In this document: in pieces, positions 1,311 through 11,543 of the stretch
Position numbering within the stretch: the stretch's first letter is position 1
Layout of the letters: every line of letters begins with the position of its first letter
NCBI GenBank assembly: GCA_048939245.1
Contig: JBHLPR010000068.1
Location: 1 to 11,924, forward strand
Direction of reading: 5' to 3'
DNA length: 11,924 bases
Source: Promethearchaeota archaeon
GTDB lineage: Archaea; Asgardarchaeota; Hermodarchaeia; Hermodarchaeales; Hermodarchaeaceae
Program-made: the position numbers and the translations under genes
The notes under the pieces: model-generated
The model's input: only the letters and a program-made list of their open reading frames with translations
Told to the model about the DNA's origin: nothing
Database searches by the model: none

Positions 1311-2699
1311 ATGACAAAACTGGTGGGACAAACTTTCATCAAAGTACTAGAAAAAAGAACGGCTTCTCATCAAACCCGAGTTATACACGCATTGGATATT
1401 GCAAATGCGTTCTCACCTGGAGTTTCCGAATCTGATCGTGTTGCTCTAATTGAACGTGCGTGTCATCTTGCAGCTGCTGTTGCACCATACGTTGTAGCAA
1501 TTAAACTGAATTATCCTCTGGTTCTTGCAGTGGGATTAGAAATTGTCCATCACCTGAAATTGGTGGTTCCAGATGTTCCGCTCATTGCAGATTTTAAGGT
1601 CGCAGATATTGACAATACCAACGCATGGATTAGTCGACATGCATTTGCGGCAGGATTTGATGCCATTATCACACATGGGTTTATCGGTGATGATGCTATC
1701 AAGGCAGTCATAGCTGAAGCTAAGAAAGCTGGTGACCGTGGAGTCATTCTTGTTGTAGATATGAGTCATCCCGGCGCTACTCAATTTATTCATCCACAAA
1801 CTCCACAATTAATCCACCTAGCAAAACAGATGAAAGTAACAGGAGTCATTGCCCCTGGCACCCGACCTGCTCATGTACGTGAAATCCGAAATCTCATCGG
1901 TTCTGAAATATTAATTCTAGCCCCTGGAGTCGGAGCCCAGGGTGGACAACCTGGGTCTGCTATTGCTGCTGGGGCAAACTATGAGATTGTGGGCCGTTCC
2001 ATTTATACCGCAGAGAATCCTGCAATAAAAGCAGGAGAATTCGCTAAACACACATATGCTGCACCTTTTGACCCAAGCATCTCACCTCAAGAGGCAATCG
2101 TTAAAGAAGTAGCTATTCTTCTCGCTGATGTGGGTGCAATTCAATTTGGCGACTTTATTCTGGTTTCTGGAAAACCGAGTCCCTATTATATTGACTTACG
2201 AGTGATTCCTTCTTATCCTAGCGCATTCACAAGATTGACTACTCTCTTTACACAATGGTTGAAAGCCCATCCCAAAGTTACCTTCAATCGTATCGCTGGA
2301 GTACCCACGGCCGGCATCTCCTTCGCTACTGCCATATGTAATCGCTTAAACGTCCCTCTTCTATACATCCGAAGTAAATCAAAACAATATGGTCGCCAAA
2401 AACGAGTCGAAGGAGTGCTCGAATCAGGGGACCATGTATTAGTGATTGATGATCTAATCACCGACGGAGGGAGTAAAATCGAAGCAGTAGAAGCACTCCG
2501 AAAGGCAGGTGCTAAGGTGAGTGATGTATTGGTCGTAGTGGACCGTCAGCAGGGTGGCGCACAGCAGCTAAAGAAAAGAAAATTAACCCTTCATGCTCTG
2601 GCTCCCATTTCTCAGATTATTCGAGCATTAGAGGTTGAGAAGCGCTTATCCAGTTCTGACGCTAAACAGATACTCACCTACATTACGAATCAGGAATAG
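1311..2699 (+). CDS. pyrFE: Bifunctional OMP decarboxylase - orotate phosphoribosyltransferase (PyrF-PyrE fusion)
   Basis: N-terminal ~250 aa: ALD, IKLNYPL, DFKVADIDNT (DxKxxDIxxT), MSHPG, PGVGAQGG, IVGRSIY. C-terminal ~200 aa: FGDFILVSGKPSPYYIDLR, RSKSKQYG, VIDDLITDGGSK (PRPP loop), VVVDRQQGG. No internal stop. Confidence 0.95.
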   Translation: MTKLVGQTFIKVLEKRTASHQTRVIHALDIANAFSPGVSESDRVALIERACHLAAAVAPYVVAIKLNYPLVLAVGLEIVHHLKLVVPDVPLIADFKVADIDNTNAWISRHAFAAGFDAIITHGFIGDDAIKAVIAEAKKAGDRGVILVVDMSHPGATQFIHPQTPQLIHLAKQMKVTGVIAPGTRPAHVREIRNLIGSEILILAPGVGAQGGQPGSAIAAGANYEIVGRSIYTAENPAIKAGEFAKHTYAAPFDPSISPQEAIVKEVAILLADVGAIQFGDFILVSGKPSPYYIDLRVIPSYPSAFTRLTTLFTQWLKAHPKVTFNRIAGVPTAGISFATAICNRLNVPLLYIRSKSKQYGRQKRVEGVLESGDHVLVIDDLITDGGSKIEAVEALRKAGAKVSDVLVVVDRQQGGAQQLKKRKLTLHALAPISQIIRALEVEKRLSSSDAKQILTYITNQE

Positions 2700-2704
2700 G
2701 GCTC

Positions 2705-3406
2705 TCAGGTTTTTACAATCAACTTTTTGCTCGTTAATCGTTGGCCAACCAAAGTTATCACTACGACTCCAAAGTAGCCTAATAGAAAGGCAAGTGGATA
2801 ATGGACAAGCTCAAATGGGGCTAAGCCAACGGCTGGGGCAAAGAGTTCAATAAAAATCCTAAACAAGTTTCCCAGTACGATAATACAAATGGCAATAAGC
2901 ACTACACCCACATGATCGGGTTTAGGTTCATGGTTTTTATCTGCAAGCACAAGGAGGGTTAGACAAGGAATCAAGGCGATTAGCCCAGCACATGCGTTGT
3001 CAATTTCTCCCCCGATAATCCGGAAAGTTACGGCTTCGTTTACAAAAATCAGTACTTGGGCTCCTCCGAAATGAGGGACAAAGTACAAAATGGGATTAAC
3101 GCCGATGAATTGGAGAAGTGACGCAACGGTTTGCGAATAGAGCCATTGAATTGGCCAAAAATCAATTAAAATTACAAGAAGCGATGAAAAGATGATGGCT
3201 GAAATGAGTTTCACATCATTGTTAGTTTTGAAGGCTTTCGAGGACTGGAAGAGAATCGTTATTCCAAGTACTATTAAAAAGAGTGCAACCGGAATTAGAA
3301 TACTTTGTGGAAATGAATAAATGACTCCTCCTGCTACAATAAGGGTGGTTCCTACAAGAAATAGAAGCCATGGCGAATAGTCAATAAGGAGATTGGAATG
3401 TTTCAT
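2705..3406 (-). CDS. Archaeosortase/exosortase family multi-pass membrane protease (transpeptidase-like)
   Basis: Several hydrophobic helices plus the family's Cys-Arg-His order: EIDNACAGL, GNLFRIF, ELVHYPL. Confidence 0.8.
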   Translation of the reverse strand: MKHSNLLIDYSPWLLFLVGTTLIVAGGVIYSFPQSILIPVALFLIVLGITILFQSSKAFKTNNDVKLISAIIFSSLLVILIDFWPIQWLYSQTVASLLQFIGVNPILYFVPHFGGAQVLIFVNEAVTFRIIGGEIDNACAGLIALIPCLTLLVLADKNHEPKPDHVGVVLIAICIIVLGNLFRIFIELFAPAVGLAPFELVHYPLAFLLGYFGVVVITLVGQRLTSKKLIVKT

Positions 3407-8486: not shown

Positions 8487-8963
8487 TCAATCACTTTTTG
8501 AGATTTCCGCTCCGCAATTTGCACAGTAGATTGCTCCAGGGTACACTTGGTTTCCGCAGGAAGTGCAAAACTGCACTTGTTCTTGGTAATCGCCGTTTGC
8601 TTCACGCCCTACCGCGATCGTACGGAAGAGCGGGTCCAATGACGTCACTAAGTCATTCCAAAATTCTAGCATCGCAAGAAGCTGTTTGTCACCATTGGTA
8701 GTGAGTTGATAGTATTTGCGTGGTCGTTCACCGGAGACGTCCCAGGTGCTGCGGACCATTTTTTGTTCTTCGAGACGGCGGAGCAACGGATAGAGGGTGC
8801 CATCTTGAACGATGAGTCGATCAGCGGTGCGTTCGCGGATGCTTTGAGCAATAGCGTAGCCGAAGGTGGATTTTGTTTCCTTGATGACGGCGAGGACAAG
8901 GAGGCGCAAAAGACCCCGGCGTACGTCGCTTTCCCATGTTTCAGGTATTGTTTGTTTCGGCAT
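8487..8963 (-). CDS. PadR-family transcriptional regulator with C-terminal zinc ribbon
   Basis: RRGLLRLLVLAVI, FGYAIAQSI, GTLYPLLRRLEEQKMV, RPRKYYQLTTNG. C-terminal CTSC-x10-CANC. GGAG upstream of the ATG. Confidence 0.92.
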   Translation of the reverse strand: MPKQTIPETWESDVRRGLLRLLVLAVIKETKSTFGYAIAQSIRERTADRLIVQDGTLYPLLRRLEEQKMVRSTWDVSGERPRKYYQLTTNGDKQLLAMLEFWNDLVTSLDPLFRTIAVGREANGDYQEQVQFCTSCGNQVYPGAIYCANCGAEISKSD

Positions 8964-9058
8964 TTTGCTGTTCTCCGCCTGAGAGCGGTTGTCGTTGATG
9001 GCAAAGGTGCTTGTGTGTTAGACCATGCGCCTTGATAGGCACACAATCTCGTTAAGCA

Positions 9059-9083
9059 ATATACCTTGCCACGCTATGTATAT
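9059..9083. promoter_or_regulatory. Imperfect palindrome, candidate PadR autoregulatory operator
   Basis: ATATAC-CTTGCCACGCTAT-GTATAT, with 9 of 11 symmetric positions complementary. Overlaps the start site predicted from the adjacent TATA box. Confidence 0.5.
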
Positions 9084-9096
9084 CGATTGGCATACC

Positions 9097-9110
9097 TATT
9101 TAAACTTAAC
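9097..9110 (-). promoter_or_regulatory. Archaeal BRE-TATA promoter candidate for padR
   Basis: Minus strand GTTAAG-TTTAAATA (9110 to 9097): BRE-like hexamer followed by a consensus TTTAWATA. Confidence 0.55.
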
Positions 9111-9128
9111 GGACGCTAGCAAAAATGA

Positions 9129-9304
9129 GTACAGGCAGACCACAAGCTGGAGGGTTCCCAAAAAGAAGGGTCTGCCTGTACGGGGCGGTTTATCCGCCAT
9201 TTCCAGGGCACCACTTAATGCCCTAGAAACCCATGCGTATTCCCTGGACTACTGTTCTGGAAGGTATGTGGTCGCAAAACCACGTAACCAGCGTAATGGA
9301 AGTG
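9129..9304. repeat. Copy 1 of a ~176-bp tandem multi-hairpin element (candidate structured ncRNA)
   Basis: Stems GTACAGGCAGACC/GGTCTGCCTGTAC (9129-41/9169-81), GGCGG/CCGCC (9184-88/9194-98), TTTCCAGGGCA/TGCCCTAGAAA (9200-10/9219-29), TATGTGGT/ACCACGTA (9265-72/9279-86). Colinear with copy 2. Confidence 0.85.
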
Positions 9305-9480
9305 GTACAGGCAGATCCTTGCAGGAGGCTAAGAAAATGTGATCTGCCTGTACGAGCGGTTTGTTCCGCAAATTCTAGGATGCTTCCCATCATCCTAGAA
9401 ACCCACGCGATTTCCCTGGAGTCAGTGTTGTGGAAGGATGGCCAAAGAGGTTGCCATCAAAATCAGCAGGATGCAAAGGC
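9305..9480. repeat. Copy 2 of a ~176-bp tandem multi-hairpin element (candidate structured ncRNA)
   Basis: Stems GTACAGGCAGATC/GATCTGCCTGTAC (9305-17/9341-53), GCGG/CCGC (9356-59/9366-69), TTCTAGGATG/CATCCTAGAA (9373-82/9391-9400), GATGGC/GCCATC (9437-42/9453-58). Right boundary approximate; overlaps the 3' end of the 9422 ORF. Confidence 0.85.
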
Positions 9481-9772
9481 AAGCCAAGGCTAAGAGAATA
9501 CACTGAAACCAAGTTTCTGTGATATTGTTGAGAAACCAAGTGGCTAGCCTAAGTGATAACATTTCCTGGGTTCTATCAACGTCAGATGAAAAAATAGGAT
9601 TAGAGCCTGTCAAATTGGAAGGACTTGTGACCGGAGCTGGATTTGCTTGTGTTTCTACAGGCACGATATTCACGTGAAATCCAAAATAGAATCCAGCGGC
9701 TACGAAAATCGTTAGTAAGAAAAGTGCCCACCTTTTTGATGTGGACCAGTTCATCGACTGTCGTCGAGTCAT
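9422..9772 (-). CDS. Hypothetical small membrane protein (two hydrophobic segments flanking a P/S/T/N-rich linker)
   Basis: KRWALFLLTIFVAAGFYFGF ... CILLALACLCILLILMATSLAIL. ATG 9772 is preceded by TGAGGGATTG, the same 10-mer found before the GNAT start. Alternative starts are TTG 9781 and ATG 9754. Confidence 0.6.
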   Translation of the reverse strand: MTRRQSMNWSTSKRWALFLLTIFVAAGFYFGFHVNIVPVETQANPAPVTSPSNLTGSNPIFSSDVDRTQEMLSLRLATWFLNNITETWFQCILLALACLCILLILMATSLAILPQH

Positions 9773-9810
9773 CAGCTCCAATCCCTCAGTGGCGCTGTCT
9801 TTTTTTTCTC

Positions 9811-9819
9811 TTATAAATA
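9811..9819. promoter_or_regulatory. TATA-like element in the divergent gap between the small ORF and pyrG
   Basis: TTATAAATA on + (TATTTATAA on -). Direction cannot be assigned from sequence. Confidence 0.4.
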
Positions 9820-9884
9820 TGTAATGATGGAGGCACTAGCTAGCTTACCGCTAGCCTTATGTAGTGGTTAGTAAAGGAGGAAAT

Positions 9885-11543
9885 ATGCCTAAGTTTATTT
9901 TTGTAACAGGTGGGGTCTTGTCCGGAATCGGAAAAGGGCATACCACTGCAAGTATTGCTAAGCTGTTACAGTTTCGTGGCTATGAAATCGATTTAGTAAA
10001 AATTGATCCATATCTCAATGTAGATCCTGGTACCTTAAATCCCGTTGAGCATGGAGAGCCGTTCATTACCGATCAGGTTTTTGAATTTAATCCGGCTCCT
10101 AGTTTTGAATATACTTCTGCAGAAGTGGATCAGGATTTCGGGACCTATGAGCGGTTTATTGGTCGGGCGATTCATCCTCGGAATAATATCACTTCTGGAC
10201 AGGTCTATCTGAGTGTGATTTTGCAGGAACGATTGGGAACGTTCTTGGGGAAGACGGTCCAAATTATTCCACATGTCACTGATGAGATTAAACGCCGTTT
10301 ACGAGATGTTGGACGTGCTGTGAAGGGATTAGATGTTGTTATGGTTGAAATCGGAGGGACTGTAGGAGATATTGAAGCAGCACCTTTTCTGGAAGCGATC
10401 AGACAGTTTCGGCTGGAAGAGGATTCGTGTGATACCCTACTAGCACATGTGACCCTTGTTCCTTTATTGTCTACTGTTGGTGAATTGAAAACTAAACCCA
10501 CCCAACACTCAGTAAAGCAACTACAGGCCTTGGGATTACAACCTGATGTGATTATTGCACGGGGTAAGATCTCGCTCACAGAAGATGCACGTCGGAAAAT
10601 CGCTTTACACAGTAATGTTCCCCAGGAGGCTGTCATCTCTAATCCGGATCTTGATGAAATCTATGAATTGCCCTTGAAATTTTATGAGCAGGGATTGGAT
10701 GCAATTATTCTTCAGCGATTGGAAATGATGGCTCGACCACCAGCTGGGATGGCAGCTTGGCAACAAGTGGTGGAACGTTTCGTGAATACTTCCAGGCACC
10801 TTCGTGTTGCTATGCCTGGGAAATATGTAGCCATGGCTGATACCTATGTTAGCATTAATGAGGCTTTGCGAGCTGCCGGAGCCCATCAGGGTACAGCCGT
10901 GAGTATTGATGTGGTTGATTCGGAACAACTGGAGGAAAATGAGAACGCGAGGAATCAACTCCTTCAATATGATGGACTGCTACTCACTCCGGGGTTTGGC
11001 ACCCGTGGAACTGAGGGAATGATTCGTGCAGCTTGGATAGCTGTTGAAAAGGATTTACCCTTTCTTGGTATTTGCTTTGGCGCACAACTACTCTTCGTAG
11101 CCTTGTGTCGAAACGCACTTGGGATGAAAAAAGCGAATAGCACCGAGCTTGATGAGAACACACCCTACCCCGTTGTCGATTTTCTTCCAGAACAAAAGGA
11201 GGTTGAAGAGAAAGGAGGAACCATGCGACTAGCAGGGCATCCCGTCCATATTAGACCTTCTACAAAACTGCGGAGTATCTACAAGAAATCGAAGGTCCGT
11301 GAACGATTCCGACACCGTTATCACCTAATGTGGGATCCCGCCAAAAAAGCGGAAGAGATTGGCTTGCTCGTTTCAGCTACGGATAAGACTGGAAAAATCA
11401 TAAATGCGATTGAAATGGCAGATAAGTTTTGGATGGTCGGCGTTCAGTATCATCCTGAATATATTTCTCGTCCTGATACACCTCATCCACTCTATTCTTC
11501 CTTTGTAAAAGCAATGCTCCAGCGAAAGCACGCGAAAAGATAA
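9885..11543 (+). CDS. pyrG: CTP synthase
   Basis: [64 protein letters not shown], and glutaminase motifs GICFG and QYHPE. Start set at ATG 9885, 4 nt after AGGAGG (9875-9880). Confidence 0.98.

Follow-up and report, generated by a model that had tools for sequence, protein, structure and literature searches.

What is encoded by a hairpin-rich block of 176 nt that stands twice in tandem between padR and pyrG in a hermodarchaeal genome, and from which strand is it expressed? We addressed this question in a window of 11,924 nt (the whole stretch of DNA analysed, positions 1–11,924 of contig JBHLPR010000068.1, Hermodarchaeaceae). The window carries pyrimidine genes, and the element lies between padR and pyrG. 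The padR gene, with a zinc ribbon, is its downstream neighbour (8487–8963, minus strand; Pfam PF03551 and PF13240), and pyrG, encoding CTP synthase, is the divergent upstream neighbour (9885–11543, plus strand; Pfam PF06418 and PF00117). The BRE-TATA of the downstream padR operon (9097–9111, minus strand) is conserved in genomes with and without the element.

Further features of the window were recorded in their own right. A CCGC-N6-GCGG hairpin adjoining the padR ribosome-binding site (8975–8988) and palindromes beside the padR TATA box (9060–9095) are conserved in all 17 syntenic genomes read; together they are likely PadR operators and a leader hairpin. At the start of the pyrG leader (9847–9875), a hairpin-like block, ACCGCTAGG...AGTGGT, is conserved in all genomes of the genus and is possibly a CTP-linked control element. 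By inspection, pyrF and pyrE appear to be fused in one 462-aa ORF (1311–2699, plus strand). Positions 2705–3406 (minus strand) encode a 233-aa membrane protein without a Pfam match, whose Cys, Arg and His motifs we take to be reminiscent of exosortase/archaeosortase.

The tandem repeat, its strand and its fold

The two copies are colinear, start at 9129 and 9305 and repeat with a period of 176 nt, as a sequence-only reading of the window had claimed. Comparison of copy 1 with copy 2 gave a score of 82 against a maximum of 26 among 1000 shuffles, and blastn detected the similarity with an E value of 7e-10. Each copy folds with a z-score of –3.3 to –5.7 relative to shuffles, whichever strand is considered. 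Much of the local detail of the earlier reading was reproduced: P1 is a perfect 13-bp stem in both copies, with loops of 27 and 23 nt, a 27-nt block is identical at 24 of 27 positions, P3 contains three compensated pairs around 8-nt loops, and positions 9204 and 9225 in P3 are C and A. Its claim that the loops drift held only in part: CCUCC(A/U)GC and a U-run are retained in the P1 loop, and most homologs have NNGGGAAG as their P3 loop. Comparison with homologs confined the aberrant P3 loop to the distal copy of this lineage.

The strand had been left undecided. Across 25 distinct homologous units, reading P1 and P3 on the minus strand makes their non-Watson-Crick pairs G-U at 11 distinct positions, A-C at none and U-U at one. 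This asymmetry between G-U and A-C has a binomial p of 0.001, to which strand-biased mutation could contribute, as both wobble-producing mutation types are deamination types. We therefore assign the RNA to the minus strand; the strand of an overlapping ORF, described below, agrees independently.

On the minus strand, the proximal unit (copy 2, 9305–9480) runs 5'-P0-CCUUCCA-stop-P4-P3-P2-P1-3', as supported by a covariance-model score of 189 bits and by pair counts. P0 (9437–9458) is a hairpin in the last ORF codons that is 86% paired, with two-sided changes in three of its six pairs. P4 (9402–9420), right after the stop codon in the 27-nt block, is likely a fifth small helix, of 4 weak base pairs and a purine-rich loop; it is 94.8% paired, and its sequence is conserved without two-sided change, so that its structure is only suggested. 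P3 (9374–9399), a 9-bp stem, is 99.6% paired and has four pairs with two-sided changes. P2 (9356–9369), a short GC-rich hairpin, is 95% paired and folds in 24 of the 25 units, being absent in G009 and weak in the distal unit of G013. The 13-bp P1 stem (9305–9353) is 100% paired, with nine invariant pairs and one pair showing two-sided change. Its loop, which ranges from 23 to 37 nt across homologs with the CCUCC motif retained, holds a U-run and CCUCCUGC (9321–9328), predicted to be 0.83 unpaired. Taken over all helices, 93% of cells are paired and there are 44 two-sided changes versus 15 in shuffles (0/500), a figure inflated by a control that ignores kinship and hence supportive rather than a formal test. 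The invariant single-stranded blocks are CUUCCA, CCAGGGAA, GUGGGUU and GGGAAG.

The distal unit (copy 1, 9129–9304, minus strand; 157 bits) repeats this order, with P0 at 9268–9283, P4 at 9230–9248, P3 at 9202–9227, P2 at 9184–9198, P1 at 9129–9181 and the P1 loop motif CCUCCAGC at 9146–9153. The last P1 is followed by a U-tract (9121–9125), the predicted 3' end of the transcript. A U-tract follows the last copy in all homologs, and CACUUC takes its place at the tandem junction. At ~12630–13700 of G000:C118, we also observed two tandem cassettes, each consisting of a 40–46-aa basic ORF and an ensuing ~125-nt element, which a 13-bp helix and a T-tract close; their layout resembles that of the tandem element, without sequence similarity.

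Searches of the window, the short region and three homologous loci gave no match to any Rfam 15 family (riboswitches, ribozymes, snoRNAs, HEARO, SRP and RNase P among them) better than E 3.4 over the element, which bears out its absence from the catalogued families. HEARO/IscB RNAs likewise showed no similarity. Other identities were rejected on specific grounds. A TnpB omegaRNA or IS200/IS605 right end is contradicted by the absence of a linked tnpB and of similarity to right ends, and a MITE or REP by one locus per genome in place of many dispersed copies; homologs support the lack of an IS or MITE identity. For a retron msr-msd, there is no reverse transcriptase at the locus and no RVT_1 in G000, G003 or G008. 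In G013 (L154–L158) we observed nine reverse-transcriptase matches, with none in the four congeners searched. SECIS was dismissed as the stop codon is UAA in three lineages and no tRNA-Sec scored above the cut-off in five incomplete genomes, and read-through or frameshifting at the stop was dismissed since neither the stop codon nor the downstream frame is conserved. An RNA derived from or pairing with SRP RNA was rejected as well: there is no profile match, SRP RNA is unchanged where the element changes, and an 8+9-nt two-site complementarity between the two (post hoc p 0.004) occurs without covariation. Ordinary copies of SRP and RNase P RNA are also present, which speaks against a replacement for either. 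Self-cleaving ribozymes (hammerhead, HDV-like, twister, pistol) had no Rfam match, their cores were not seen by inspection and the candidate pseudoknot lacks covariation. Guide-like complementarity to the partial 16S rRNA or to the genome was at chance level. The 16S rRNA gene of a relative (G008:C48) carries a ~616-nt insert with an apparent ORF (L146:130–745) and two short inserts near its 3' end (L146 ~1172–1200 and ~1328–1425), which are probably archaeal rRNA introns.

An overlooked membrane-protein gene

The element had been taken as free-standing and intergenic. Instead, it is the 3' portion of a small membrane-protein gene on the minus strand, whose last ~18 codons it overlaps. This orphan ORF (9422–9772, 116 aa) is supported by homologs, dN/dS, hydropathy and a helical model. 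Hydropathy places two transmembrane helices at residues ~16–34 and ~92–110, after a basic N-terminus. Homologs with the same length and frame occur in 8 of 19 family genomes, with dN/dS values of 0.21–0.67. Only about 15 relatives of the protein are known, all of them at this locus where DNA or gene order is readable; two protein searches returned 13 and 6 matches, none beyond this group where traced. The protein belongs to no Pfam family, and searches of Pfam and the ESM Atlas gave weak leads only. Its AlphaFold model is helical and of low quality (pLDDT 61, pTM 0.32), and is therefore unfit for a fold search. A plus-strand 33-aa peptide starting at ATG 9125 was rejected, as its frame is not conserved.

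Upstream, a BRE-like motif and a TATA-like box form a predicted archaeal promoter (9810–9826, minus strand), the box itself (9810–9818) keeping a constant distance from the leader in nine lineages. The short leader (9773–9788, minus strand; predicted start near 9787) contains the SD-like TGAGGGATTGGA, unchanged in 9/9 lineages and also found before a GNAT gene and the neighbouring surface-protein gene of G003 and G004. In most lineages, a TCGAC-N4-GTCGA palindrome or hairpin (9754–9767, minus strand) directly follows the start codon. Between element and padR, G004 (L003:1870–2850) and G003 (L004:1–760) have an extra gene of ~225 aa with a signal-peptide-like start, a C-terminal transmembrane helix, its own promoter and the same GAGGGATTG leader.

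The stop codon of the orphan ORF falls within copy 2, and the last hairpin of that copy (9437–9458) is therefore also protein-coding. The distal unit arose by duplication of the 3' UTR together with the final ~60 nt of the ORF, and is now entirely non-coding. Comparison of the homologs establishes that the last ~18 codons and the 3' UTR make up a conserved multi-hairpin RNA ending at the U-tract. On the same comparative footing, the element is real: an undescribed, genus-restricted structured RNA that forms the 3' end of an orphan gene for a membrane protein.

Conservation, distribution and loss

Between lineages whose pyrG 4-fold sites are 57–77% different, the RNA core differs by 10–30%, and 44 stem positions show 0–8 differences. 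SRP RNA differs by 2–12% over the same genomes in comparable pairs; the element is therefore less constrained than SRP RNA, yet in the same order. Within the orphan ORF, 4-fold sites are 15% different in the last 18 codons versus 60% elsewhere. The non-coding 5' spacer of the distal units, which is their copy of this stretch, is only 9–28% different among five lineages and 48–60% different in G013. From the frozen silent sites and the conserved non-coding copy it follows that the functional RNA begins within the ORF and that both copies are usually maintained. The alignments place both units under purifying selection. The tandem repeat is thus real and under RNA-level selection, which bears out the original suggestion of selection on a folded nucleic acid. 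The accompanying claim that conservation is not protein-driven needs correction for the plus-strand sequence 3' of 9421, which lies within the conserved minus-strand ORF and is also protein-coding.

A neutral, decaying duplicate of an ordinary terminator hairpin could account for the microhomology at the tandem junction and for the lineages that have lost or partly eroded one copy (the proximal copy in L137, the distal copy in L043 and G013). The sequence-only reading had likewise named a decayed local duplication as the alternative. However, silent sites have diverged far more than either copy, and five helices with invariant loop motifs amount to more than a terminator. The conservation refutes this explanation, which is left scarcely credible. 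We consider the duplication to be old, since all two-copy genomes have essentially one common junction sequence and proximal and distal copies largely cluster apart.

The same 8 of 19 genomes, and no others, carry both the gene and the RNA, at one locus each. The carriers are this genome and 7 of the 14 other genomes of the genus, and tabulation of the neighbouring genes placed the element in the padR-pyrG interval in every one. Four of the seven other carriers have two copies and three have one; with three of eight carrier genomes single-copy, the tandem state is optional. In non-carriers, the padR promoter is followed almost immediately by the pyrG leader or by a radical SAM gene; most absences therefore represent genuine empty sites. 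The covariance-model search that had been proposed found homologs at the same locus within the genus, and no credible match beyond it under strict filters in 150 Asgard genomes. Matches in three other Asgard families (E 0.001–0.01) were rejected, as they mostly covered the U-rich helix-coding part without P1 or P3. Pattern scans of all GTDB species genomes matched only these lineages, and plasmids, phages, viral, metagenome and JGI contigs yielded chance stems only.

In a pyrG phylogeny (FastTree, with the sister genus as root and without L043), carriers are scattered across the genus and include the deepest branch. This spread suggests ancestral presence, gene and RNA having been lost together at least four times, the alternative being repeated gain by recombination. 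The padR-pyrG interval is, on the gene orders compared, a hotspot of gene gain and loss. A radical SAM-like gene occupies it on the minus strand in G004, G007 and G014, with a fragment in G005 (L011, L017, L018, L028).

Such patchiness could also mark a DNA-level element, such as a MITE or IS end, an attC-like site or a single-strand origin, that carries the gene as cargo. The locus gains and loses radical SAM and surface-protein genes as well, the 13-bp inverted repeat is invariant in sequence, and the G-T asymmetry is also compatible with single-stranded DNA. Yet each genome has a single locus, always between padR and pyrG, and the element does not resemble any of 16 tnpB 3' ends taken from these genomes. 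Moreover, plasmids, phages and viral contigs have no match beyond chance stems and the spacer is variable (23–37 nt). A DNA-level element is largely refuted and would now be very improbable.

We give little credence to an arrangement akin to type I toxin-antitoxin loci, in which the hydrophobic protein would be the toxin and a plus-strand antisense RNA would start about 30 nt after the TATA box at 9097–9104. A small hydrophobic orphan with a structured 3' UTR would suit it, as would the near-symmetric TATA, which lies 30–32 nt from the edge of the element in all genomes. However, a BRE-like motif orients this box toward padR, the box is retained at empty sites, and the wobble asymmetry points to selection on the minus-strand fold only. 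The single locus per genome, apparently vertical descent and repeated loss also speak against it, and 116 aa is long for a type I toxin. There is no fold-back on the SD sequence, and each lineage has different predicted pairing partners for the leader.

Possible roles and known systems

Protein identity between lineages is 29–44%, and the RNA core is about 75% identical. As the RNA is far better conserved than the protein, it is probably a second, regulatory product of the orphan gene. We tentatively favour, at somewhat less than even confidence, a regulatory RNA derived from the 3' UTR, with an anti-Shine-Dalgarno CCUCC exposed in its loop. Like such sRNAs, it lies at the 3' end of an mRNA on the same strand, shares with it the U-tract at 9121–9125 as predicted terminator, and is more conserved than the ORF or than neutral change would allow.

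In this scheme, the orphan gene would give a dual-output transcript from the minus strand. The second, non-coding unit came from an old duplication, in tandem, of the final 176 nt. Transcription would start at the promoter of the gene (no internal TATA was seen) and end at the U-tract, and the RNA would persist as a stable 3' domain or as a processed fragment of ~160–350 nt. The long P1 stem would keep open a pyrimidine loop of 23–37 nt with a U-run, a possible Lsm/SmAP site, and CCUCC. The latter is the core of the 16S anti-Shine-Dalgarno and could pair with GGAGG ribosome-binding sites of other mRNAs, repressing their translation; two units would offer two loops with different flanks. We favour a regulator acting in trans, either freed from the 3' end or still borne on it, because the strongest stem opens a large pyrimidine loop in which nothing but the U-run and CCUCC is fixed. 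Lsm genes are present, and the 16S 3' end, GAUCACCUCCU, matches the loop motif. GGAGG and GGTGA prevail in start regions, a partly circular result given that starts were picked by SD score. CCUCC occurs in most units, predicted 0.44–1.0 unpaired, being mostly unpaired in proximal copies and half-paired in most distal copies of this lineage; some units have UCUCC, CCUCU or CUUCC instead. In G000, no specific mRNA target stood out: of 2134 crude gene starts, 273 have GGAGG nearby, and the best predicted duplexes form a continuum under these crude gene calls. Masking of ribosome-binding sites is the mode of action of Methanosarcina sRNA154 loop 2 and sRNA41 (PMC5867862), and CpxQ from cpxP exemplifies a dual-output mRNA in bacteria (PMC4817254).

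The near-invariant stem sequence and the invariant single-stranded blocks exceed the needs of a base-pairing sRNA and would fit an RNA bound by protein, or one with a tertiary fold, just as well. A 3' domain that acts in cis or binds a protein competes closely with the anti-Shine-Dalgarno reading, if doubtful in itself. It would control its own mRNA by blocking 3'-5' decay, by directing termination or processing, or by binding a protein for localisation or timing of translation. The structure spans the last codons to the U-tract, the RNA is never found apart from the gene, and the short invariant leader and post-start hairpin suggest post-transcriptional control. Nevertheless, whole-mRNA folds of nine lineages contain no conserved pairing between leader and 3' domain, and a leader-to-3' fold-back was rejected accordingly. 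The RNA is also much more constrained than the protein it would serve, and a second complete unit, including the copy of the ORF end, is retained under selection. Against the anti-Shine-Dalgarno scheme, two copies are not required, as single-copy genomes exist and one copy is partly decayed in L137, L043 and G013.

A compact tertiary-folded RNA is unlikely. It could be a ligand-binding aptamer, a self-cleaving ribozyme or an RNP scaffold, perhaps with the membrane protein (compare OLE RNA/OapA). Invariant single-stranded purine and pyrimidine blocks could pair across loops, RNA and membrane-protein gene are lost jointly, and the units are arranged in tandem, as are some riboswitches and ribozyme arrays. 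Against this, Rfam contains no matching ribozyme or riboswitch, and the candidate pseudoknot between GCUGG and the loop CCAGC is 72% paired without two-sided change. A possible CUUCC-GGAAG contact is broken in one distal lineage and in L042, and the 3'-end position, together with padR having its own promoter, leaves no clear expression platform. Decidedly unlikely, too, is that the RNA is the main product, a new functional class released as ~176-nt units from the tandem 3' array (ribozyme, aptamer or membrane-tethered RNP).

In the open-access literature, we found no paper describing the element and none that deals with hermodarchaeotal small RNAs; next to nothing has been charted of RNA-based regulation in Asgard archaea. 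The element offers a defined molecule of ~180 nt with 25 natural variants for probing, cleavage and pull-down experiments, its general importance being limited by a narrow range of one genus with frequent loss.

Comparison with known systems reveals several partial likenesses. Staphylococcus aureus RNAIII combines, in a single transcript, a membrane-active ORF and a 3' hairpin domain with C-rich loops. The likeness is one of layout only, as the ORF here encodes a two-helix protein of 116 aa, and the 3' domain is duplicated and of lesser length. TnpB omega/reRNAs (IS200/IS605) are structured RNAs overlapping the 3' end of an ORF, whereas our element lacks a nuclease gene and a transposon end and is unlike the tnpB ends found in the same genomes. 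Loci of the txpA/RatA type comprise a small hydrophobic protein, a structured 3' UTR and a convergent promoter. Our locus shares with these type I toxin-antitoxin systems of Firmicutes (see PMC8309996) the small hydrophobic protein, the structured 3' UTR and possibly the convergent promoter; it differs in showing no sign of a selected antisense fold, in its single locus with apparently vertical descent, in its larger protein and in that no SD sequestration was found.

Closer in host and size are sRNA154, sRNA41 and sRNA162 of Methanosarcina mazei (PMC5867862, PMC3510493), archaeal multi-stem RNAs in an organism with SD-led translation. Loop 2 of sRNA154 bears an anti-RBS sequence, as the CCUCC loop of the element would. 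Whereas these RNAs come from intergenic genes, each with a promoter of its own, and have proven targets, ours is embedded in an mRNA, and no sequence similarity to them was detected.

The overall arrangement is most reminiscent of bacterial 3'-UTR-derived sRNAs such as CpxQ (PMC4817254), NarS and MicL. In both cases, a conserved RNA ends the mRNA of a small envelope protein and is more conserved than its surroundings; the bacterial sRNAs share promoter and terminator with that mRNA, as the archaeal element would. However, those RNAs consist of a short seed and a terminator, whereas the archaeal element is ~176 nt long with five helices, overlaps ~18 codons, is tandemly duplicated and has no sequence relation to them; any processing would be by analogy. 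If the favoured reading is correct, the element would be what 3'-UTR-derived regulators are in bacteria, here in an archaeon: part of a dual-output mRNA in which the 3' RNA, retained in tandem, is under stronger selection than the protein.
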